Shown here: positions 1 to 16,725 of the stretch, piece by piece
Position numbering within the stretch: position 1 is the first letter of the stretch
How the letters are laid out: each line of letters begins with the position of its first letter
IMG/VR virus record: IMGVR_UViG_638341082_000006
Strand: one strand, 5' to 3'
DNA: 16,725 nucleotides
Origin: a virus
Lineage: Duplodnaviria; Heunggongvirae; Uroviricota; Caudoviricetes
Notes under the pieces: generated by a model
Database searches by the model: none
Told to the model about the DNA's origin: nothing
What the model saw: only the letters and a program-made list of their open reading frames with translations
Position numbers and translations under genes: made by a program

Positions 1-288
1 ATGAATATAATTCTGCCGATAAAAGATATATTTATTATTGCGGGAAACATAGTTTTTAGCGTTTTATACAATGAACATCTTGAGTTCCCATGCCGCTGCC
101 AATTACTATCTTCAAATTCTGAAGTTATGCAAGAGTTATATATTGAAAAAGAGTTATTTATTAAACGCACTACGGAAAATGATTGTCGTGCTTTAGTGTT
201 AAGAGGAACATTGGAATACTTATTTGATGAAATTATTGCTGGCGAGTGTGCATTGGCCTTATTACAAAAAGAAATAAAAAAAGATTAA
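1..288 (+). CDS. hypothetical protein, 95 aa, in very AT-rich DNA; reading frame continues in +1 frame after an A7 tract (possible frameshifted gene)
   Basis: ORF track 1..288; window starts at its ATG; no recognisable motif; frame-2 open reading 278..574 without start codon follows. Confidence 0.35.
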   Translation: MNIILPIKDIFIIAGNIVFSVLYNEHLEFPCRCQLLSSNSEVMQELYIEKELFIKRTTENDCRALVLRGTLEYLFDEIIAGECALALLQKEIKKD

Positions 289-578
289 TCCAATATGTAG
301 AACGGGACAATACCCATCTTTTAACAATGAACTTCGTAATTTTTATCTTAGAAATAATGCTACATTATATGAGGTATATCATGAGGTAAAAAATGTTAAC
401 AAGGGAGTTGGCCTGGTGGGAGATAATGGTATCGTCCTGGTAATTAGAAGTTCCAATTCCAAAAATACACTTGAGGAATTTCATGAATTCTTTGGAAACT
501 TCAAACCTAATAATTCAACAGCTCGAGTTGAAGTGATTGATCAATCCGTTTTAGAACCTTTTTGGAGATTTTAAAAAT

Positions 579-776
579 ATGATCACCAAATCAAGTATAC
601 TCATAGAGTATAAAGATAAAAGTAAACTAACCGATAGTATTTATAAGTTTGTAAATGCTCTAGACATTGACTTTTCGATATTAAAATATGACTACTTTGA
701 TGTAAATGAGTATAAAAAAACATTACTTATGACACATCTTTTATTGACAAAGATGCAGAATATATTGAATTACTAG
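579..776 (+). CDS. hypothetical protein, 65 aa; frame continues in -1 frame (716..1054) after an A7 tract, possible frameshifted ~158 aa gene
   Basis: ORF track 579..776 with ATG at 579; downstream frame-2 open stretch of 112 codons with no start codon, translated by hand. Confidence 0.3.
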   Translation: MITKSSILIEYKDKSKLTDSIYKFVNALDIDFSILKYDYFDVNEYKKTLLMTHLLLTKMQNILNY

Positions 777-1095
777 CGAAGATTGATTTTTCTTATGAAG
801 TTGATTTCGGCACATCAACAACATCGATTGAAAGCAAGTATCTTCCATCTCTAACTGATTTCATCGCTCAATCACTATCACAACAATTAAATTGTGACAT
901 AATAACCAGCTTTAAACCATTAAGTGGAGATGAGTTTTGCCCAATAACATATTTTTCAAAAGGTAAAGAAGTTATCAATTTTACGACATTTAATTCAAAT
1001 TGTTGGGATGGGGTATGCTGGGTAAAAAAAAGGAGGCAAACAAATATCCGCTAACGTAGTTTTTCAATAGCTACACCATGTCACGTAACATGATG

Positions 1096-2428
1096 CCTGG
1101 ATATTAACCAGGAAAAGATCATCAGAAGTTCACTTTTTGTACTAAATAATTCGCATTTTATGTTTAAAAATTGAGATATTCCTTATTACCTGAAGCTGTT
1201 TTTTATTGCTTATACATGATCAAATACTTCTTACATAATTAAGGAGAACAAAATGGAACTTAAAAAATTGATGGAACATATTTCTATTATCCCCGATTAC
1301 AGACAACCCTGGAAAGTGGAACATAAATTATCGGATATTCTACTGTTGACTATTTGTGCCGTTATTTCTGGTGCAGAAGGTTGGGAAAATATAGAGGATT
1401 TTGGGGAAACACATCTCGATTTTTTGAAGCAATATGGTGATTTTGAAAATGGCATTCCTGTTCACGATACCATTGCCAGAGTTGTATCCTGTATCAGTCC
1501 TGCAAAATTTCACGAGTGCTTTATTAACTTGATGCGTGATTGTCATTCTTCAGATGATAAAGACGTCATTGCAATTGATGGAAAAACGCTCCGGCACTCT
1601 TCTGACAAGAGTCACCGCAGGGGAGCGATTCATGTCATTAGTGCGTTCTCAACAATGCACAGTCTGGTCATCGGACAGATCAAGACGGATAAGAAATCTA
1701 ATGAGATTACAGCTATCCCTGAACTTATTAACATGCTGGATATTAAAGGAAAAATCATCACAACCGATGCGATGGGTTGCCAGAAAGATATTGCAGAGAA
1801 GATACAAAAACAGGGATGTGATTATTTATTCGCGGTAAAAGGAAACCAGGGGCGGCTAAATAAAGCCTTTGAGGAAAAATTTCCGCTGAAAGAATTAAAT
1901 AATCCAGAGCATGACAGTTACGCAATGAGTGAAAAGAGTCACGGCAGAGAAGAAATCCGTCTTCATATTGTTTGCGATGTCCCTGATGAACTTATTGATT
2001 TCACGTTTGAATGGAAAGGGCTAAAGAAATTATGCGTGGCAGTCTCCTTTCGGTCCATAATAGCAGAACAAAAGAAAGAGCCAGAAATGACGGTCAGATA
2101 TTATATCAGTTCTGTTGATTTAACCGCAGAGAAGTTCGCCACAGCAATCCGAAACCACTGGCACGTGGAGAATAAGCTGCACTGGCGTCTGGACGTGGTA
2201 ATGAATGAAGACGACTGCAAAATAAGAAGAGGAAATGCAGCAGAATTATTTTCAGGGATACGGCACATCGCTATTAATATTTTGACTAATGATAAGGTAT
2301 TCAAGGCAGGGTTAAGACGTAAGATGCAAAAAGCAGCCATGGAGAGAAACTATCTGGCGTCAGTCCTTGCGGGGAACGGGCTTTCGTAATCTTGCCCTGC
2401 CTGCTCACCTCCTCCAGGCACTTCCACT
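1096..2428 (+). mobile_element. ISAs1-family insertion sequence (H-repeat element); boundaries approximate
   Basis: Contains the 378-aa ISAs1/H-repeat transposase ORF; 8-bp direct repeat ACATGATG at 1088..1095 and 2429..2436 brackets a 1333-bp segment, the size expected for this family; terminal inverted repeats not identified by eye. Confidence 0.45.
1253..2389 (+). CDS. ISAs1-family transposase (H-repeat-associated protein, YhhI/YdcC-like), 378 aa
   Basis: Translation [20 protein letters not shown]...[13 protein letters not shown]... matches recalled E. coli H-repeat-associated proteins in length and sequence; RBS AAGGAG 8 nt upstream of ATG. Confidence 0.9.
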
Positions 2429-2659
2429 ACATGATGACCTGCTCGGTGCCACCGCTCCTTTTCACTATGACGTTAACCTCCCCGTCCCAGGACACCATGC
2501 TTTTGTCTACATTCTACGCAAACGGCAACTTTTATAACCAGTGTAAAAATAACGTGCCGCAATAGTCATACCTATTAATGGTAAAAAGCTGTCACAATTC
2601 ATAAAAAACCTTAATATACGCCACCCTAAACATAACCAGCGTTAATGTAAGGTTTTTGT

Positions 2660-2818
2660 GTGGACTGGCTTCTTGATGTTTTTGCTACCTGGCTCTACGG
2701 CTTAAAAGTAATCGCGATAACGTTAGCGGTCATCATGTTCATCAGCGGGCTGGACGATTTTTTTATTGATGTCGTCTACTGGGTACGCCGCATTAAACGC
2801 AAGTTGAGTGTTTATCGC
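2660..2818 (+). pseudogene. 5' fragment (about 53 codons) of a membrane-protein gene truncated at a deletion junction; possibly nfrB-like
   Basis: GTG start with AAGG upstream; N-terminus MDWLLDVFATWLYGLKVIAITLAVIMFISGL has a clear hydrophobic helix then basic patch; beyond about 2818 the frame is antisense to the Nu1 homologue. Assignment to nfrB is from K-12 gene order memory, not alignment. Confidence 0.35.
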
Positions 2819-3328
2819 CGCTATCAGTTCATCCAGCGCGGCTGCTTTGTTCATGGCTTTGATGATATCCCGTTTCAGGAAATCAACATGTCGGTTTTCC
2901 AGTTCCGGAAAACGCCGCTGCACCGACAGGGGGATCCCGTCGAGAATACTGGCAATTTCACCTGCGATCCGCGACAGCACGAAAGTACAGAATGCGGTTT
3001 CCACCACTTCAGCGGAGTCTCTGGCATTTTTCAGCTCCTGTGCGTCGGCCTGCGCACGCGTAAGTCGATGGCGTTCGTACTCAATAGTCCCTGGCTGGAG
3101 ATCTGTCTCGCTGGCCTGCCGCAGTTCTTCAACTTCCCGGCGCAGCTTTTCGTTCTCAATTTCAGCATCCCTTTCGGCATACCATCTTATAACGGCGGCA
3201 GAGTCATAAAGCACCTCATTACCCTTGCCACCGCCTCGCAGAACGGGCATTCCCTGTTCCTGCCAGTTCTGAATGGTACGGATACTCGCACCGAAAATGT
3301 CAGCCAGCTGCTTTTTGTTGACTTCCAT
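2723..3328 (-). CDS. nohD: phage terminase small subunit, lambda Nu1 family, 201 aa with non-lambda C-terminal 30 aa (fusion at a deletion junction)
   Basis: Translation MEVNKKQLADIFGASIRTIQNWQEQGMPVLRGGGKGNEVLYDSAAVI... is near-identical to lambda Nu1 through ...KAMNKAAALDELI, then diverges; no large terminase gene follows. Confidence 0.9.
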   Translation of the reverse strand: MEVNKKQLADIFGASIRTIQNWQEQGMPVLRGGGKGNEVLYDSAAVIRWYAERDAEIENEKLRREVEELRQASETDLQPGTIEYERHRLTRAQADAQELKNARDSAEVVETAFCTFVLSRIAGEIASILDGIPLSVQRRFPELENRHVDFLKRDIIKAMNKAAALDELIAAINTQLAFNAAYPVDDINKKIVQPADEHDDR

Positions 3329-3329
3329 T

Positions 3330-3560
3330 GTTCATTCCACGGCCAAAAACAGAGAAAGGAAACGACAGAGGCCCAAAAGCTCGTTTTCAGCACCTGTCGT
3401 TTCCTTTCTTTTCAGGGGGTATTTTAAATAAAAACATTAAGTTACGACGAGAGAAGAACGGAAATGCCTTAAACCGGAAAATTTTCATAAATAGCGAAAA
3501 CCCGCGAGGTCGCCGCCCCGTAACCTGTCGGATCGCCGGAAAGGACCCGCAAAATGATAA
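3330..3560 (-). other. lambda-type cos site (cosB, cosN, cosQ-side); cosN cohesive-end sequence at 3507..3518
   Basis: 3507..3518 reads aggtcgccgccc, reverse complement of GGGCGGCGACCT (lambda 12-nt cohesive end, from memory); flanking sequence ...cgtaacctgtcggatcg... and the Nu1-proximal region resemble the lambda left/right ends. Confidence 0.8.
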
Positions 3561-3717
3561 TAATTATCATCTACATGTCACAACGTGCATCTACGCCATC
3601 AAACCACGTCAAATAATCAATTATGACGCAGGTATCGTATTAATTGATCTGCATCAACTTAACGTAAAAACAACTTCAGACAATACAAATCAGCGACACT
3701 GAATACGGGGCAACCTC

Positions 3718-3912
3718 ATGTCAACTAAGAACAGAACCCGCAGAACAACAACCCGCAACATCCGCTTTCCTAACCAAATGATTGAACAAATTAACATCGC
3801 TCTTGAGCAAAAAGGGTCTGGGAATTTCTCAGCCTGGGTCATTGAAGCCTGCCGTCGGAGACTAACGTCAGAAAAGAGAGCATATACATCAATCCAGAGT
3901 GATGATGAATAA
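3718..3912 (+). CDS. ylcI: small DUF3950-like protein, homologue of lambda orf64 / DLP12 ylcI, 64 aa
   Basis: ORF track 3718..3912; position between cos and bor on the strand expected from lambda right end; sequence ...NIRFPNQMIEQINIALEQKGSGNFSAW... Confidence 0.65.
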   Translation: MSTKNRTRRTTTRNIRFPNQMIEQINIALEQKGSGNFSAWVIEACRRRLTSEKRAYTSIQSDDE

Positions 3913-4271
3913 ACATCCCGGTTTCTTCCACCATCGCACCGGAAAAGCGACTATGAGGGTAACCCTGCGTCTGTCAGCACAGTAAAACCCGGTGTGCATC
4001 GTTTTTGATTATTCCCGCACACTCACGCAGAAGGAATTCCCCGTCGGGCTACGGTCATGGTTAATGCGGGAATACGGCGACGATACAGCGCAGCTAAAAG
4101 GGTAATGGACAGAAAGAGCGGTTTATTTCATTCCACAGGATTCTGAGTGCCCCCCTCCTCCAATAGGCTGAGCATCCACCTATATAGTTTTAATTTTCAT
4201 CAATCCATTTAACTATCGTTTAATTGTTGTCACATAGGATTCTGCCGTTTTTAACAATGCAGGATAATAAG

Positions 4272-4565
4272 ATGAAAAAAATGTTGTTTTCTGCCGCTCT
4301 GGCAATGCTTATTACAGGATGTGCTCAACAGACGTTTACTGTTGGAAACAAACCGACAGCAGTAACACCAAAGGAAACCATCACCCATCACTTCTTCGTT
4401 TCGGGAATTGGACAGGAGAAAACTGTTGATGCAGCCAAAATTTGTGGCGGCGCAGAAAATGTTGTTAAAACAGAAACCCAGCAAACATTCGTAAATGGAT
4501 TGCTCGGTTTTATTACTTTAGGCATTTATACTCCGCTGGAAGCGCGTGTGTATTGCTCACAATAA
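4272..4565 (+). CDS. borD: Bor-family outer-membrane lipoprotein (serum resistance), 97 aa
   Basis: Start moved to ATG at 4272 (MKKMLFSAALAMLITGC... lipobox LITGC) with AGGA upstream; matches recalled Bor length and sequence. Confidence 0.9.
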   Translation: MKKMLFSAALAMLITGCAQQTFTVGNKPTAVTPKETITHHFFVSGIGQEKTVDAAKICGGAENVVKTETQQTFVNGLLGFITLGIYTPLEARVYCSQ

Positions 4566-4575
4566 TTGCATGAGT

Positions 4576-4593
4576 TGCCCATCGATATGGGCA
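4576..4593. terminator. hairpin between convergent borD and rzpD, likely bidirectional terminator
   Basis: tgcccat-cgat-atgggca, 7-bp perfect stem with 4-nt loop, located between the two convergent stop codons. Confidence 0.5.
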
Positions 4594-4596
4594 GCT

Positions 4597-5058
4597 CTAT
4601 CTGCACTGCTCATTAATATACTTCTGGGTTCCTTCCAGTTGTTTTTGCATAGTGATCAGCCTCTCTCTGAGGGTGAAATAATCCCGTTCAGCGGTGTCTG
4701 CCAGTCGGGGGGAGGCTGCATTATCCACGCCGGAGGCGGTGGTGGCTTCACGCACTGACTGACAGACTGCTTTGATGTGCAACCGACGACGACCAGCGGC
4801 AACATCATCACGCAGAGCATCATTTTCAGCTTTCGCATTAGCTAACTCCTTCGTGTATTTTTCATCCAGTGCAGCAACATCACGCTGGCGCATCTGCATG
4901 TCAGTAATTGCCGCGTTCGCCAGCTTCAGTTCTCTGGCATTTTTGTCGCGCTGGGCTTTGTAGGTAATGGCGTTATCACGGTAATGATTAACAGCCCATG
5001 ACAGGCAGACGATGATGCAGATAACCAGAGCGGAGATAATCGCGGTTACTCTGTTCAT
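4597..5058 (-). CDS. rzpD: Rz-type i-spanin, 153 aa
   Basis: Start moved to ATG at 5058 ([23 protein letters not shown]... N-terminal TM helix, coiled-coil rich); ATG overlaps rrrD stop. Confidence 0.9.
4656..4838 (-). CDS. rzoD: Rz1-type o-spanin lipoprotein, 60 aa, embedded in +1 frame within rzpD
   Basis: [20 protein letters not shown]... lipobox then proline-rich [15 protein letters not shown]; entirely inside rzpD in another frame. Confidence 0.85.
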
Positions 5059-5552
5059 TGCTGACCCCACAAACAGATTTCACGCTCAATCTCACGACGA
5101 GTCATGAGACCTTTCCATTGCTTACCGCCAGCATATGTCCAGCGACGTAGCTGATCACATGCGCCTTTGATATCGCCCTGGTTTATTTTGCGAAGAAGCG
5201 TCGATGTTCTGAAATTGCCAGCGCCCACGTTGTAAACGAACGAGTAAAGAGCGCCGCGCGTTGTTTCCGGTATATCAACTTTTATGTACGGGTTAATTTG
5301 TCTGGCGACCGTGGCAAGGTCTTTATTCAGGAGGGCTTTGCATTCTGCTTTGGTATACGTTTTACCGAGCATGATGTCTTTTCCTGTATGCCCGTGACAT
5401 ACAGTCCATACACCAACAATATCTTTGTATGGTATGTAGCTGACACCTTCCAGACCATCGTTACCACTTGGGCCAGTGATTAACACTGATGCTATAGCAA
5501 TTGCTCCGCCACCAATAGCAGCAGCAACGGCTTTTCGTAATGATGGAGGCAT
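5055..5552 (-). CDS. rrrD: SAR endolysin (phage 21 R21-type lysozyme), 165 aa
   Basis: [27 protein letters not shown]... N-terminal signal-anchor-release segment followed by lysozyme domain; ATG overlaps essD stop. Confidence 0.95.
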
Positions 5553-5767
5553 TATTCACCTCTCGCAGCCTTGCGCTTATCTTCTTTAATCTTGAAATAA
5601 AGGTTTGTCAGGTACGTCAGCAGGCCAAATACCAGGCTACCCAGCACACCTATTGCTGCCCACTGTGAGGGCGTGACTTTATCGAGCAGCTGTAAAAACC
5701 AGTAACCGGCACTACCTGCTGAGGTGCCATAGGCGACACCCGTTGTTAACTTATCCATGGATTTCAT
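5552..5767 (-). CDS. essD: pinholin (phage 21 S21-type holin/antiholin), 71 aa
   Basis: Start moved to ATG at 5767 giving [26 protein letters not shown]...; dual-start motif M-K-S-M; GAGGTGG SD upstream. Confidence 0.9.
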
Positions 5768-5812
5768 AACCCCACCTCGCAGACAAAGCGGGTGTAAATT
5801 GAGGGAATACAA

Positions 5813-6355
5813 CGTATCGCAAAAAAGCAGAAACGTAACAGACTCGGAGTCAGTGAATAACTCAGGTATTGAGTTATCAGCTAATATCGAGACTCAAAAA
5901 ATGGAAAAACCAGCTCGACGGCGGGTTTAAGCTGTGTGACGAAGTAACCACTCTTAACAGCATAACCAATTTTTTACGTACGTAAACCACTGAATGATAT
6001 TTATGAGAATGCTACCGAGTGTTCAAAACACCACCACAAATATATAAGAAAACCTCAACAAATAACCAATAAATAATTTCCGGCGTTATTTTTAGTTGAT
6101 TTAAATTAAACCACCGAATTATAGAACCCCCATAAATAACAGCCATTAATATAAATTAGCTAATAGGTTTATTTTTGTTCAAATAAGAGCCATAAATAGG
6201 TTTCGATAGAAAAAGTTCAGATAAAAATAGAGATCTACTTCACAAATTAAATGAGAAACTAAAACTTACATCTTGAAATAATCACATTGATTAGATGAAT
6301 ATTTATCGCGCAGTGACATCATTTTTTAATAATAGTTCAAAAAAAAGGGCTCACG
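5813..6355 (+). promoter_or_regulatory. long AT-rich upstream regulatory region of nmpC (promoter not precisely mapped)
   Basis: 543 bp, strongly AT-rich, no ORF of 60 aa or more, directly precedes porin start with AAGGG RBS. Confidence 0.4.
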
Positions 6356-7438
6356 ATGAAAAAATTAACAGTGGCAATTTCTGCTGTAGCTGCATCAGTA
6401 CTGATGGCGATGTCTGCTCAGGCAGCTGAAATTTATAATAAAGACAGTAACAAGCTGGATCTGTACGGGAAAGTTAATGCCAAGCACTACTTTTCCTCTA
6501 ACGATGCAGATGATGGTGATACTACTTATGCCCGTCTTGGCTTCAAAGGTGAAACCCAAATCAACGATCAACTGACTGGTTTCGGTCAGTGGGAATATGA
6601 ATTCAAAGGCAACCGCGCTGAATCTCAAGGTTCCTCCAAAGACAAAACCCGTCTTGCATTTGCAGGCCTGAAATTCGGTGACTACGGCTCAATCGATTAC
6701 GGCCGTAACTACGGTGTAGCATACGACATCGGTGCGTGGACTGACGTTCTGCCAGAATTCGGTGGCGATACCTGGACCCAAACAGATGTGTTCATGACTG
6801 GTCGCACCACTGGTGTTGCAACCTATCGTAACAACGACTTCTTTGGTCTGGTCGATGGCCTGAACTTTGCTGCTCAGTATCAGGGTAAAAATGACCGCAC
6901 TGACGTAACTGAAGCCAATGGTGATGGTTTCGGTTTCTCCACTACTTATGAGTATGAAGGATTCGGCGTGGGTGCAACCTATGCTAAATCAGATCGCACT
7001 GACGGTCAGGTCGCCTATGGTAAGAGCAAATTCAATGCCTCCGGCAAAAATGCGGAAGTATGGGCTGCAGGCCTGAAATATGATGCGAACAATATCTATC
7101 TGGCTACCACATATTCTGAAACTCAGAATATGACCGTTTTTGGTAATAACCATATTGCAAACAAAGCACAAAACTTTGAAGCAGTAGCACAATATCAGTT
7201 TGACTTCGGTCTGCGACCATCTGTTGCTTACCTTCAGTCAAAAGGTAAAGACCTTGGTGTTCATGGTGACCGAGACTTAGTCAAGTATGTCGATGTCGGT
7301 GCTACTTACTACTTTAATAAAAACATGTCCACTTTTGTTGATTACAAAATCAACTTAATTGACGATAGTAAGTTTACCAAAACAGCTGGTATTGATACCG
7401 ACGACATCGTCGCTGTAGGTCTGGTGTATCAGTTCTAA
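6356..7438 (+). CDS. nmpC: outer-membrane general porin (OmpC/OmpF/NmpC family), 360 aa, apparently intact
   Basis: Signal peptide [23 protein letters not shown], beta-barrel porin sequence ending ...VAVGLVYQF; close match to recalled NmpC. Confidence 0.95.
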
Positions 7439-7575
7439 TCTGATTACGAAAAAGATATGTTGCGGGAGGCTTTGCCTCCCCAACATATAAGTGGCTCCCT
7501 CAAGCCACTTCCTTTAGAAGCACAACCTTGCTTCTAACTATATAAACCTTCTGTTATATATTACCCTTTATTTTT

Positions 7576-7604
7576 GGGGGCGTCTCAACGCCCCATTTTT
7601 AATA
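7576..7604 (+). terminator. intrinsic terminator downstream of nmpC
   Basis: gggggcg-tctcaa-cgcccc stem-loop followed by atttttaat; two further hairpins at about 7464..7480 and 7489..7510. Confidence 0.6.
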
Positions 7605-7627
7605 ATTTTTAGTAAACAATTGGCATA

Positions 7628-8011
7628 TTAATTAGAGTTATTAACAACGATATCCATCTCTAACCGGATATCTAATGCCATTAACATCCCTTCAATTATG
7701 CCCTCAGCCTTCTGTAACCTTTTCCCGATATAACCATCAGAGCAGCAATGCTTACCTGCCAGTGACATGAATGTCATACCGACTACATAATAATCTACTA
7801 ATAAATCGTGCAAATCGCTGTTGTTCTTTTTCAGACGGGCCATGCACCCGCAAATGATCATCGCGTCATCGTCACAACATTGCGGGCGAGATTTTACTTT
7901 TGAAGGAATTAATCCCTTAAAACCGGCGGCAATGGACGACCAGGTCACATCTTCATGATTATTAGCCGCCCACGCTCCCCAACGCTCAAGAACCATCTGA
8001 ATATCACGCAT
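7628..8011 (-). CDS. quuD: late-gene antiterminator Q, 127 aa
   Basis: Start moved to ATG at 8011 ([24 protein letters not shown]...); track ORF begins at an upstream TTG; matches recalled QuuD. Confidence 0.9.
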
Positions 8012-8096
8012 CAACTTACTCCACAAAAATCAGACCAGAACGCCAATTACAAGCAAAAATCAATAAAACAGTATTAGTTGATTGTTATCTCTGACT

Positions 8097-11085: not shown

Positions 11086-12612
11086 TCAAAAATAAACCTC
11101 ACCATCAACCATATATTTGAGAGTACTTATCGCCTGCTGGGCGGATATTGTTTTCATTAAAGGATAGTGTTTAAAAACAATGCCATTCATAAAATAGATA
11201 TCACAGGTTTTATTATCTGTATTGATTATGATTTTTTCGAATGTTTTATAGGCAAGTGTACGACATAGCTCTCGCCCATTTTTACTGGTTAAGTCAATAG
11301 CATGAAAATCACCAAGTGAACTCACCGCTTTACTCTTCAAAGTTTTTAATGATACCGAAGCCCTTCGTAATTCTTTATCTAATACTCTGATTTTTTCTGC
11401 TATAGCGGTAACTTCAGGCGCAACAGATAATGCAGCAATTAAATTATTAATTTTCATCTGGAGCTCAATAATTTTCAACTCTAAAGTTTCATTAGCATCT
11501 TTCTTGTTTTCAACTGGTTGGATTTTACTACAATTAAAAAGCAACTCATTAATGATATTATAATCAACCAAATCTCTCTTTATTGATGGCCTGTCACATC
11601 GATGCAGTCTTCTCATCGGACAAACATAATAGCCATGCAAACTTCCAGATACCGCATGAACAATCATGGTATTACCACAAGCCTCGCACTTCATAACTGT
11701 TCGAAGTAGATTTATCAACATAGGATTTTTGCTACTATTGCTAATACCAAAAGGTGCCAACCGAATTTCCTGCACAGCGTAAAACAAATCATCTGATATG
11801 ACTCTGGGATAATAGCCAGCGATTTCACTTATTCCTTTACCTCTTGCACGATATGAAGGTACGCATATACCTATCAGAGCTTTATTCGCTAATAATTTTT
11901 CAATTACAGAAGGCCCCCATGCACTTTCTTTGCCTGAGAAATTTTTTACAGCATGATCATTTAAATACTTGGCTATTGCATTCAATGATCGCCTTTCCAT
12001 CCTGAGTTTAAAAATTAGCTCAATCGTTTTCACCCTGTCGGGGTCTGGAATAAAAGCTGTTCTTTTGTCATCCAATGAGAGCCATCTCGGACAAGACGCC
12101 GTCATAATCGTGCCTGACTCCAGTGCATCCTGCCGTTTTTTCTTCCATGATAATTTAACCCGACTTGACTTTATCTCGCTTTCTTCATTTGCCCTTTGTG
12201 CTATAAGTATGGCTTTTATTAATGAATATGGATCATTCAAAGAGTCAATATTATAGACTGTATTATCGCAAAGAGTTATAACATCAATACCGTGATTCAA
12301 AATCAATTTCAGACGCTCAATCGCTTCACCGACTTTTTCTCTTGAAAGTCTGTCCAAACTTTCAACTAACAATGTAGTTCCTGGCAATATATAACCATGC
12401 TCTATAGCATCTAAAAATTCCGAAAAAGCTCCTGATTGTGCATGCTTTCCTTTGAATGCACTTAATCCTAAATCTTCATATGTTATGGTATCAAGATAAT
12501 AATCACTATTTACCTTTAACCATTCAGCAATAAGTCTTCTCTGTCGGTTCAATGAGTCGCCAGACATCTGACCTGGTGATGAAAATCGCATATATGCTAT
12601 GGCTTTTTTCAT
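11086..12612 (-). CDS. ybcK: large serine recombinase (resolvase/invertase-type catalytic domain plus recombinase and zinc-ribbon regions), 508 aa
   Basis: N-terminal AIAYMRFSSPGQ...NRQ serine-recombinase catalytic motif; C-terminal Cys cluster CEACGN...YYVCPMRRLHRC and coiled coil; matches recalled YbcK length; about 34 percent GC. Confidence 0.9.
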   Translation of the reverse strand: MKKAIAYMRFSSPGQMSGDSLNRQRRLIAEWLKVNSDYYLDTITYEDLGLSAFKGKHAQSGAFSEFLDAIEHGYILPGTTLLVESLDRLSREKVGEAIERLKLILNHGIDVITLCDNTVYNIDSLNDPYSLIKAILIAQRANEESEIKSSRVKLSWKKKRQDALESGTIMTASCPRWLSLDDKRTAFIPDPDRVKTIELIFKLRMERRSLNAIAKYLNDHAVKNFSGKESAWGPSVIEKLLANKALIGICVPSYRARGKGISEIAGYYPRVISDDLFYAVQEIRLAPFGISNSSKNPMLINLLRTVMKCEACGNTMIVHAVSGSLHGYYVCPMRRLHRCDRPSIKRDLVDYNIINELLFNCSKIQPVENKKDANETLELKIIELQMKINNLIAALSVAPEVTAIAEKIRVLDKELRRASVSLKTLKSKAVSSLGDFHAIDLTSKNGRELCRTLAYKTFEKIIINTDNKTCDIYFMNGIVFKHYPLMKTISAQQAISTLKYMVDGEVYF

Positions 12613-12867
12613 GGTGACACCTGCTAACGTATGCTTTTATAAACCTTAGTGGTGGGATATAACTTTTGTTTAATTTTTATTTAAAAAGACAATTAAGGTC
12701 ACATTATCTTGAATATACAACAATAATCGTATTGCAATTTTCTCACGCCATAATCTTGAAAGCACAAAAGAATACATAAAAAATAAAGACATTAACAAAA
12801 AGCATAAAACGAGGCTCATATAAATATAAGAGCCTCCATATTTTAGTCGTTTAAAAACAAATTATTT

Positions 12868-13200
12868 TTAATGTGGTGTGCTTCGTGACAATAAATTAAT
12901 AACCAACACACCGGCACAAATCAACATCATGCCTATAATGGCTGGCAGGTCCAGCCGTTGGCCGAAAAATCCCCATGACAGTAAGCTAATCAGGACAATA
13001 CCGACTCCTGACCAGATAGCATAAGCAATCCCTGTAGGAATATAAGCCAGCGTCTGAGCTAATAACCAGAATGATGCACAATAACAAATAATTGTACCAA
13101 CAGATGGCCATAACCGTGTAAAACCTTCTGAAAACTTCATTAAGGTTGTACCAATGACCTCTGCAAGTATTGCACCACCAAGATAAATATAAGGGTTCAT
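12868..13200 (-). CDS. emrE: small multidrug resistance efflux transporter EmrE, 110 aa
   Basis: Start moved to ATG at 13200: MNPYIYLGGAILAEVIGTTLMKFSEGF... with conserved Glu14 in TM1; near-identical to recalled EmrE. Confidence 0.95.
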   Translation of the reverse strand: MNPYIYLGGAILAEVIGTTLMKFSEGFTRLWPSVGTIICYCASFWLLAQTLAYIPTGIAYAIWSGVGIVLISLLSWGFFGQRLDLPAIIGMMLICAGVLVINLLSRSTPH

Positions 13201-13267: not shown

Positions 13268-13570
13268 TCATTGTGTACCCATTGATGTTCTTTTATATAC
13301 CCTCAATACGCGTTTCATCGCGGCACTCTGGCGACACTCCTTAAAAATCAGATTCGTGCTCACCTTTCCTTCCCGTTCTTCTCTGGTAGCGAACCGGTAA
13401 TACACCGTTCGCCAGACCTTACCATCAACGACCAGGATTCCTGCCCGCGCCATTTTAGCCGCAGCCTGATTTATGCTGGTTACGGTTGCGCCTGTTACCG
13501 CGGCAACGTCCTGTGCACAGAAGCTCTTATGCGTCCCCAGGTAATGAATAATTGCCTCTTTGCCCGTCAT
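13268..13570 (-). CDS. renD: Ren exclusion protein homologue, 100 aa, apparently intact
   Basis: MTGKEAIIHYLGTHKSFCAQDVAAVTGATVTSINQAAAKMARAG... closely matches recalled lambda Ren; ATG overlaps P stop. Confidence 0.9.
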   Translation of the reverse strand: MTGKEAIIHYLGTHKSFCAQDVAAVTGATVTSINQAAAKMARAGILVVDGKVWRTVYYRFATREEREGKVSTNLIFKECRQSAAMKRVLRVYKRTSMGTQ

Positions 13571-14268
13571 ACACTTGCTCCTTTCAGTCCGAACTTAGCT
13601 TTAATTTCTGCGATCTTCGCCAGAGCCTGTGCACGATTTAGAGGTCTACCGCCCATAACAGGAAGTTGTTTTACTGGTTCAGGTATCGTCTCACCACGGT
13701 TAATTCGCGCTGTCATACAGGTCAGTTCATCGGCAGCCTTGCGCCGTAATTCCGCGTCAGTCAGCGCATTGGCCCGCATGTTCTGGTACAAGTTGGTAAC
13801 CAACCAGTAATGCGCGTTCGATTTCCACGGATAAGACTCTGCATCCGGATACAGGCCACGCTTCCGGCAATACTCGTAAACCATATCAACCAGCTCGCTG
13901 ACGTTTGGCAGCCCGGCGTTAACAGATGCTTCTTCCCGGCACCAGGCGACAAACTGCCCGGGTGATGGCAGGAATGGTCGATTCTGCCGACGGGCTACGC
14001 GCATTCCAGCGTTAACCTGTTCCATTGTGGTGATCCCGTTTTCCCGGAAAGCCAGAACCCACTGGCGGCGGATTTCGTTCAGTTCATTCTGGTCACGGTT
14101 AGCCAGGCTCGCCGGGAAAGTTGCCAGTAACTGGCTGAACACACCGTTGATGATCTGCGCTACCTGCTGTACCTGTGGCTTTTCGTCGTACTGTTCCGGC
14201 ATGTTGTTGGCGATCCGGCGCATCTGCTCACAGTCAAAGTTAACCATCTGTGCGGCGATGTTTTTCAT
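13567..14268 (-). CDS. P: replication protein P (DnaB helicase loader), lambda P family, 233 aa
   Basis: MKNIAAQMVNFDCEQMRRIANNMPEQYDEKPQVQQVAQIING... near-identical to recalled lambda P over its full length; ATG overlaps O stop. Confidence 0.95.
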   Translation of the reverse strand: MKNIAAQMVNFDCEQMRRIANNMPEQYDEKPQVQQVAQIINGVFSQLLATFPASLANRDQNELNEIRRQWVLAFRENGITTMEQVNAGMRVARRQNRPFLPSPGQFVAWCREEASVNAGLPNVSELVDMVYEYCRKRGLYPDAESYPWKSNAHYWLVTNLYQNMRANALTDAELRRKAADELTCMTARINRGETIPEPVKQLPVMGGRPLNRAQALAKIAEIKAKFGLKGASV

Positions 14269-15706: not shown

Positions 15707-16725
15707 AAAAGCTAGGGGATTTACCTGATGTCACTTTTGAAGAGGCCTGCCTAAGATGGCTTGAGGAAAAAGCTGATAAAAAATCTCTCGATTCAGATAA
15801 AAGCCGGATTGAGTTCTGGCTTGAACATTTTGAGGGTATAAGGCTTAAAGATATCTCGGAGGCAAAGATTTACTCTGCTGTAAGCAGAATGCATAACAGA
15901 AAGACGAAAGAAATATGGAAACAGAAAGTTCAGGCCGCCATCAGGAAAGGTAAAGAACCGCCTGTTTATGAACCAAAGCCAGTATCAACTCAGACAAAGG
16001 CAAAGCATCTTGCCATGATAAAGGCCATTCTCCGTGCTGCAGAACGCGACTGGAAGTGGCTGGAAAAAGCGCCTGTCATCAAGATACCAGCGGTCAGAAA
16101 CAAGCGAGTCAGATGGCTGGAAAAGGAGGAAGCAAAACGCCTTATTGATGAGTGCCCCGAACCACTGAAATCTGTCGTCAAGTTTGCGCTGGCAACTGGT
16201 CTGAGAAAGTCGAACATCATAAATCTGGAATGGCAACAAATCGACATGCAGCGACGAGTTGCCTGGGTGAATCCAGAAGAGAGCAAATCAAACCGCGCCA
16301 TTGGTGTGGCGCTGAACGATACCGCCTGTAAAGTGTTGCGTGATCAAATAGGCAAGCATCACAAATGGGTGTTTGTACATACCAAGGCGGCTAAGCGAGC
16401 AGATGGAACATCAACGCCTGCGGTCAGGAAGATGCGCATCGACAGCAAGACATCATGGCTATCAGCTTGTCGTCGTGCAGGAATTGAAGATTTCCGTTTC
16501 CATGACCTCAGACACACCTGGGCAAGCTGGCTGATTCAGTCAGGCGTCCCATTATCAGTGCTTCAGGAAATGGGCGGATGGGAGTCCATAGAAATGGTTC
16601 GTAGGTATGCTCACCTTGCGCCTAATCATTTGACAGAGCATGCGAGGAAAATAGACGACATTTTTGGTGATAATGTCCCAAATATGTCCCACTCTGGAAT
16701 TATGGAGGATATAAAGAAGGCGTAA
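15562..16725 (+). CDS. intD: tyrosine integrase, P22/DLP12 type, 387 aa
   Basis: [34 protein letters not shown]... with C-terminal catalytic motifs [11 protein letters not shown]...VRRYAHL; GAGGAAAG RBS; window ends at its stop codon. Confidence 0.95.

Follow-up and report, generated by a model that had tools for sequence, protein, structure and literature searches.

A probable 16,555-bp deletion scar joins nohD to nfrB at a recurrent TA breakpoint in an Escherichia coli DLP12 prophage region

The stretch of DNA analysed here, IMG/VR virus record IMGVR_UViG_638341082_000006 (16,725 nucleotides, called the window throughout), is the DLP12 prophage region of Escherichia coli in the orientation opposite to that of K-12, and its feature of interest is a junction between the prophage gene nohD, a homologue of the lambda terminase gene nu1, and the chromosomal gene nfrB. 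On the minus strand, an open reading frame (ORF) at 2723..3328 encodes a 201-amino-acid (aa) protein that matched the whole Pfam model Phage_Nu1 (PF07471; positions 1-164 of 164, E=3e-101). Its first 169 codons (2822..3328, minus strand) belong to nohD by both Pfam and DNA match, with 99.9% identity to REL606 nohD and 97.8% to K-12 nohD, and the DNA match to these two genes and to lambda nu1 ended at window position 2822, which is nohD nucleotide (nt) 507 in codon 169 (Ile), the end of ...AALDELI. The remainder, delimited by the ORF and the alignment (2723..2821, minus strand), consists of 32 out-of-frame codons and a stop that run antisense to nfrB codons 22-54; they replace the native Nu1 C-terminal tail (lambda residues 170-181), and gene A does not follow. 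An earlier reading of the window from its letters alone (the sequence-only reading) had seen Nu1 up to about residue 170 followed by 30 foreign residues; the fusion itself stood, with 169 and 32 as the actual values.

On the opposite strand, the nfrB remnant (2660..2824, plus strand) comprises codons 1-54 and Tyr55, two bases of which are those of the crossover, and was assigned by NCBIfam match and identity. It matched only positions 1-50 of the 723-position NCBIfam model NF008411 (NfrB; E=2.5e-19) at 69 bits against a cut-off of 1170 bits, so that only a fragment of nfrB is present. Identity to nfrB and its upstream DNA in K-12 and REL606 was 100% over window 2390/2518..2823 and stopped at 2823, and the GTG at window 2660 is the annotated K-12 nfrB start. 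The upstream intergenic region with the promoter and ribosome-binding site (RBS) was kept as well (2390..2659, plus strand; 100% identity to MRE162 and REL606), beginning right after the stop codon of an ISAs1 transposase gene and carrying AAGG 7 nt before the GTG. The profile match and the identity to the K-12/REL606 gene start confirm the suggested partner, nfrB, and the suspicion of a genuine chromosomal gene start, although the remnant is 55 codons long rather than the proposed 53.

A three-way, base-level alignment with both parents, as the sequence-only reading had recommended, located the crossover at a TA dinucleotide (2822..2823, no strand assigned), corresponding to nohD nt 506-507, lambda 696-697 and positions 1 and 2 of nfrB codon 55; these are exactly the 2 bases shared by the two homologies. 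With a slash marking the crossover, the nohD parent reads ...GATGAACTGATA/CC..., the nfrB parent in antisense ...CGCGGGTA/GCGGCGATAAAC... and the fused product ...GAACTGATA/GCGGCGATAAAC.... The two genes abut directly, with no insertion sequence (IS) terminus between them of the kind expected at an IS-adjacent deletion.

Taking the nearest intact relative, E. coli B REL606, as the reference, colinear BLAST placed window 1-2823 on positions 31189-28367 of the REL606 locus (L004) and window 2822-6934 on positions 11813-7701, each at 99.93% identity, and the two blocks overlapped by 2 bases with 16,555 bp of REL606 between them. By the REL606 annotation, the lost DNA held the tail-tip remnant J', tail-fibre genes, a tfa fragment, appY, ompT, envY, ybcH and nfrA, together with nfrB codons 56-745, the right deletion end lying in codon 55. 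The colinear blocks and the alignment bear out the idea of a deletion junction, and the gene content of the gap bears out the loss of ompT. The added comparison with E. coli B strains did not hold in detail, since REL606 retains appY-ompT-envY-ybcH-nfrA-nfrB and the absence of ompT from BL21(DE3) goes back to a separate deletion, of 18,055 bp. We read the feature as the mark left by a chromosomal deletion of 16,555 bp in a natural lineage close to E. coli B, and give this explanation as a whole, including its place in a class of crossovers at TA, a probability of roughly 85%; considered by itself, the deletion scar is ordinary and specific to the strain.

In REL606 itself nohD is not intact, as it runs after ...CTGATA into the middle of J (lambda ~16138-16140) at the same TA, a nohD-J junction that was present in 64 complete genomes. 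Because the window flanks are almost identical to REL606, the simplest history would start from a REL606-like parent in which nohD had already been joined to J at this TA, and a second deletion would then have reused the TA and removed J' through nfrB codon 56-745. The large terminase gene A was probably lost earlier, since REL606 already carries the fusion at the same nucleotide, and the proposal that the nohD-nfrB deletion had removed it is thus probably wrong. An internal stop makes nfrB a pseudogene in the annotations of REL606 (L004 26293-28530) and MRE162 (L002 20271-22508), so loss of Nfr function may predate the deletion in this lineage.

Among 5,426 complete E. coli genomes, the window junction occurred in four (FORC_082, NCCP12480, B-JRPT-4119 and O15_8X), none of them a B laboratory strain; it also occurred on one 27-kb human-gut metagenome contig (L208), and the identical 201-aa chimeric protein was recorded on 23 contigs. 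Its presence in complete genomes, a metagenome contig and 23 protein records shows that it did not arise by accident in assembly. The carriers are natural isolates from chicken meat and humans.

The nohD end of the deletion proved to be shared by many other events. Five genomes picked only for a nohD match ending nearby carried five different sequences after ...GAACTGATA, and at least 23 different continuations of ...GCGCTGGATGAACTGATA were found in complete genomes, IMG/VR and metagenomes, by scanning IMG/VR with an 18-mer and variants that excluded the intact continuation and then by a filtered metagenome scan, in which matches were retained only if the upstream 60 nt matched nohD. The continuations lay in gene A (lambda 1755, 2180, 2244 and 2487), Z (8063), J (15806, 16138, 16486, 17302 and 17967), lom (~19341), stf (~19796) and several more tail-fibre sites, and also in the right part of K-12 DLP12 and in nfrB. 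An intact partner, in lambda or another locus, was recovered for every one of them, and in each the retained DNA was directly preceded by TA. At the protein level, a 90%-identity cluster of the chimera had 159 members, and all 13 examined diverged right after ...AALDELI with differing tails, some of which were absent from the DNA-level set. In IMG/VR, the next TA upstream (lambda 652) and the next downstream (lambda 718) each gave no variant loci; the reciprocal junction (foreign DNA followed by TA and CCGGGGTTGCTG...) was found at no locus there, nor were inversion products at lambda 697. All lambda-mapped partners lay downstream of 697 in the same orientation. The site, hereafter site 697, is a one-directional, nucleotide-precise deletion start point. 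Matches to a 19-mer in genome contigs of unrelated phyla were discarded, with 44 found against ~13 expected by chance in 596 Gb; they included Planctomycetes, Nitrospira and an archaeon, and being near chance they are not evidence of transfer and counsel care with scans for short patterns.

Crossovers at TA were not confined to site 697. When colinearity breaks in the fetched lambdoid loci were mapped on lambda, 26 distinct junctions emerged, of which ~18 shared TA or TAT, among them 1018 to 22119 (K-12 DLP12), 1018 to 21370, 2179 to 8064, 3468 to 4447, 4495 to 22104, 8515 to 17970, 13439 to 13978 and 16307 to 17177; with 652 occurrences in 21.9 kb, TA makes up no more than 3% of the dinucleotides here. 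Individual TA sites were reused, 1018 with 22119 and 21370, 8064 with 697 and 2179, 17970 with 697 and 8515, and 17177 with 720 and 16307, and a site could serve on either side, as did 16139 (right end in REL606, left end in MRE162) and 2179/2180. No other left end in this class is used nearly as often as site 697. The tail-fibre sequence ACCGCGCTGACAGACAATACGC had five different left neighbours in different loci (K-12 nohA-stfQ among them), four of which ended in TA (GGTTA, GGGTA, AATATA and CTGATA); it has the look of a right-hand joint used repeatedly, or of a mosaic boundary that arose in the same way.

Outside the lambdoid set, all four BL21-lineage deletions crossed at TA, namely those in J (871 bp), at ompT (18,055 bp in BL21(DE3); junction GAATGCAGCTA/CAGCATCTGG, GCAGCTA/CAGCATC), at galM-ybhJ (17,247 bp; GAGGTTA/CCCGGG x GCCGGTA/ACGGAA) and at sufAB (854 bp; GAGGCTA/CCGCCG x ACGCCTA/AGCGCA). 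So did both vgrG-rhs deletions, of 4,920 bp in REL606 (TGGATA/CCG x CGGGTA/CGG) and 2,405 bp in FORC_082 (CCGGTA/ACCGG x TGGCTA/CCTG), both of natural origin. In all of these the TA stands within G/C-rich flanks, and the signature thus extends beyond prophages. The BL21 ompT deletion, which we take to be the allele named Delta(ompT-nfrA), resembles the window event in starting in the DLP12 late-gene remnant, in removing appY-ompT-envY-ybcH-nfrA and in crossing at a TA in G/C-rich flanks. It differs in its end points, running from the N-terminal part of the DLP12 tail-fibre gene stf to a vgrG remnant beside cusS rather than from nohD to nfrB codon 55, in its length of 18,055 versus 16,555 bp, and in its origin in a laboratory lineage instead of natural isolates. 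As related in bioRxiv 10.1101/811059, Studier et al. 2009 put the large BL21-specific deletions down to UV treatment. A literature search on nohD/nohA deletions, illegitimate recombination at TA dinucleotides and ybcK returned nothing relevant.

The sequences around these crossovers follow a common pattern. Outward from the TA, the flanks favour n-C-S-G on both sides (about CSGnTAnCSG), with A almost never at positions 3 and 4, and this preference appeared in the 697 partners, in an independent set of 20 sites and on both flanks of both partner sites. At the 20 independent sites, G occupied the fourth outward position in 25 of 40 flanks (p=4e-7) and A in none of the 40, and a matrix built from the 697 partners gave them much higher scores than a background of 3,381 TA sites drawn from lambda and the chromosome (Mann-Whitney p=8e-10). 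Both window sites fit the motif, with GA-TA-CCGG in nohD and GG-TA-GCGG in nfrB. For the events not involving 697, in-register identity between partner sites was no higher than chance on either side (left 0.31, right 0.29), which points to a site preference rather than to microhomology.

Wherever the parents differ beside the TA, the product always has the 5' neighbour of the left parent and the 3' neighbour of the right parent, as in the window, where GA-TA-GC arose from GA-TA-CC x GG-TA-GC. Such segregation fits a cut-and-join reaction at TA, either staggered by 2 nt or blunt, and is not what annealing of a longer, imperfect repeat would give, in which both neighbours would come from one parent. 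The 697 series hinted at a polarity model in which similarity of the right flanks guides template switching, but the non-697 events gave it no support. The TA breakpoint with its cross-validated flank motif could not be assigned to a known mechanism.

On these grounds the window event would belong to a class of non-homologous deletions that cross over without exception at a TA with G/C-rich flanks. We tentatively propose, at odds somewhat short of even, that DNA in E. coli is broken and rejoined at TA within about CSGnTAnCSG by a process that is selective for sequence and independent of homology, with nohD nt 506-507 as its strongest, reusable, one-directional entry site and an enzyme so far unconnected with deletion formation as its agent; such a process would explain most decay deletions of lambdoid prophages, natural chromosomal deletions such as that joining nohD to nfrB and the large BL21 'UV' deletions (ompT, gal and suf). 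Deletions from nohD nt 506-507 would run only rightward, and the retained left half-site, outliving each deletion, may permit stepwise reuse, for example from the REL606 type to the window type, which may add to the heat of the site. Site 697 has one of the best deleted flanks by motif score (CCGGGG, +3.5 bits).

Several points weigh against this interpretation. The retained flank of site 697 fits the motif poorly (-1.7 bits), and the motif alone ranks the site only at about the 86th percentile of TA sites. Its prominence could be inflated by survivorship, in that deletions from the leftmost usable site remove junctions lying further right, or by selection to keep cos, nohD, iss/bor and the lysis genes or to lose gene A, and some of the many 697 junctions may have arisen one after another in related lineages and so not be fully independent. 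The parent of the window lineage could have been an ancestor with an intact A-J region, in which case the TA would have been used twice independently, once for the REL606 junction and once for that of the window. In the same prophages, some 7-10 junctions are of the ordinary microhomology kind without TA (AA, CTG and CTGA in MRE162; CA, TT and GCAGC in others). Finally, the crossing of the BL21 deletions at TA may already have been described by Studier et al. 2009.

Several site-specific systems acting on secondary sites make deletions in which one end is fixed, as in Int-promoted deletions of the lambda b-region from att, IS-adjacent deletions and Cin recombination at quasi-cix sites. The TA class shares with them a precise recurrent end, variable partners, common crossover bases and a weak motif, and differs from them in that nohD nt 507 coincides with neither an att site nor an IS end nor any known site of a recombinase, and no element is left behind. 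By-eye comparisons with Pin/Gin-type sites, the lambda att core and dif showed a misfit in crossover position or sequence, and a Chi-like sequence 8 nt upstream (GCTGGATG), two positions off Chi, was likewise rejected by eye. Directly to the right of the hotspot, the beginning of gene A (GGGGTTGCTGAGTGAATATATCGAACAGTCAGGTTAAC; lambda 697-735; nohD-aaaD boundary, L003 9346-9383) agrees at ~23 of 38 positions with what we take to be the terminal inverted repeat of gamma-delta/Tn3, its terminal GGGG and an inner GTTAA among them; the likeness is offset by 2 nt from the crossover and was regarded as a probable coincidence.

Deletions between short repeats are a common spontaneous class in E. coli, and slipped mispairing or microhomology-mediated end joining could have made the junctions if the fixed nohD end reflected only selection to keep NohD1-169 and cos and to lose gpA, and TA were the sole microhomology by chance. 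The final ~45 nt of nohD indeed contain no TA besides site 697, several of its partners imperfectly resemble CCGGGG on the right (0.47 identity), and the events are deletions and never inversions. The spontaneous deletions between short direct repeats that Albertini and colleagues are said to have described in 1982, attributed to slipped mispairing, are similar in lacking RecA-type homology, in keeping one copy of the shared bases and in yielding deletions only, but the TA class shares just 2 bp, always TA, and ignores longer matches nearby in favour of a flank motif. Crossovers did not fall in the longest perfect repeat, since at 697 x 8064 a perfect in-register 6-bp block (GTTGCT) 5 nt away was passed over, and TA alone was shared. 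Selection at nohD also leaves unexplained the TA crossovers with the same flanks at gal, suf, rhs and inside J, and the dissimilar non-697 partner sites and the one-way resolution of mismatches beside the TA stand against annealing, so that we judge this origin unlikely.

Serine recombinases make 2-nt staggered cuts and require identical central dinucleotides, and such an enzyme acting on pseudo-sites, for example the DLP12-encoded YbcK, would predict exactly the junction pattern observed, with TA in every intact partner, exchange precisely there and left/right segregation of the flanks, as well as a roughly dyad-symmetric flank motif. In the window, ybcK (11086-12612, minus strand) encodes an intact 508-aa large serine recombinase with Resolvase, Recombinase and Zn ribbon domains, and the gene is also present in K-12, REL606 and BL21. 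A palindromic TA core should, however, also yield inversions, and neither these nor reciprocal junctions were seen; the roughly symmetric motif spans ~10 bp, compared with 40-50 bp for serine-integrase sites; and nothing links YbcK to the events. The known Pin sites (AAACC AA GGTTT; PMC12529663) are unlike the motif. On balance, a serine recombinase is a doubtful source, about as improbable as mispairing.

An IS-made deletion, either adjacent to ISAs1 or through excision, together with flanking DNA, of an IS at the nohD TA (IEE-type), has in its favour an ISAs1 transposase gene 433 bp from the junction and the combination of one fixed and one variable end, classical for IS-adjacent deletions and seen at 697. 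It is nevertheless very unlikely, with IS sequence at none of the 23 junctions, no genome seen with an IS at the nohD TA and the same signature at gal, suf and rhs, far from any IS. Because ISAs1 adjoins intact nfrB identically in REL606 and MRE162, the element is not a deletion end, and a transposon end at the junction was ruled out by the lack of an inverted-repeat partner in the window.

Illegitimate recombination by gyrase, with subunit exchange between two cleavage complexes, is a known homology-independent route to deletions in E. coli and would suit the G/C-rich, weakly symmetric flanks. The gyrase cut has a 4-bp stagger (PMC6379681), which around nTAn predicts that both flanking bases come from one parent, and the junctions always combined the left parent's -3 base with the right parent's +0 base, which makes this route more improbable still. 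We give next to no credence to the reading of the 201-aa protein as a genuine small-terminase variant with an alternative C-terminus and an incidental likeness to nfrB, even though RefSeq calls it an intact 'terminase small subunit' and the full Nu1 domain is present, because its tail is nfrB antisense base for base and is followed by 270 bp of nfrB upstream DNA, gene A does not follow, and none of 170 matching phage records extended beyond residue 172, leaving no phage record of residues 173-201, of the 32-residue tail or of the intact 201-aa variant that the sequence-only reading had named as a counterexample. Equally negligible is identity with the E. coli B/BL21 deletion Delta(ompT-nfrA), which the 99.93% identity of the flanks to E. 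coli B and the missing ompT might suggest, since REL606 has the whole region, the BL21 junction and end points differ, the BL21 deletion takes the nfrB start and the ISAs1 element that the window keeps, and among the complete genomes the window junction occurs in only four, none of them a B laboratory strain.

The deletion leaves a strain without the OmpT protease and without the Nfr exopolysaccharide/phage-N4 receptor genes, so that the junction accounts for a strain difference in which OmpT, AppY, EnvY and the Nfr system are lost. It also leaves two meaningless chimeric ORFs, NohD1-169 with 32 added aa and NfrB1-55 followed by antisense. The first retains residues 1-169, ~98% identical to lambda Nu1/K-12 NohD, and the cos site upstream; it cannot be a working terminase subunit because the last 12 residues of lambda Nu1/K-12 NohD (PGLLSEYIEQSG) and the gene A partner are missing. 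Its RefSeq record, WP_000453608.1, labelled 'terminase small subunit', and its many length variants are fusion artefacts, so that two annotation errors come to light. The second, a by-product in the ORF list (2660..3427, plus strand; 255 aa), carries NfrB 1-55 and then the antisense of nohD; it retains the nfrB promoter region, RBS and first transmembrane segment, and its product could be a putative small membrane-anchored junk protein.

If deletions in E. coli largely go through motif-flanked TA, prophage decay and gene loss would be partly predictable from sequence. Were the proposed process real, the deletions of the BL21 genotype would gain a mechanistic signature of origin, and the short defined site in nohD, ...GAACTGATA/CCGGGG, would be usable as a reporter for the responsible enzyme.

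To the left of the junction, the window holds orphan rhs-associated ORFs and then the ISAs1-family (H-repeat) transposase gene (1253..2389, plus strand; NCBIfam transpos_ISAs1, E=2e-121, and annotated loci). To the right follow, in order, nohD, cos, ylcI, iss/bor, rzpD-rrrD-essD and an nmpC-like porin gene, and further on quuD ... ybcN, ybcK, emrE, ren, P, O and intD. The DLP12 cosN (GGGCGGCGACCT) was kept upstream of nohD (3507..3518, minus strand; exact match), and a 26-nt inverted repeat, 85% complementary, lies between nohD and cosN (region 3353-3409). Strain FORC_082 is near-identical to the window apart from a 1-bp indel at ~3451 in the cos region, one single-nucleotide polymorphism at 619 and an IS1 that the window lacks, which in FORC_082 stands in place of 697 bp (window 12404-13100) and truncates ybcK and emrE; lacking this IS1, the window must derive from a different strain within that small group. 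The DLP12 porin gene (nmpC/ompC-like; window 6356-7438, plus strand) is intact in the window, whereas an IS5 splits it in K-12 and an IS1 does so in both REL606 and BL21.

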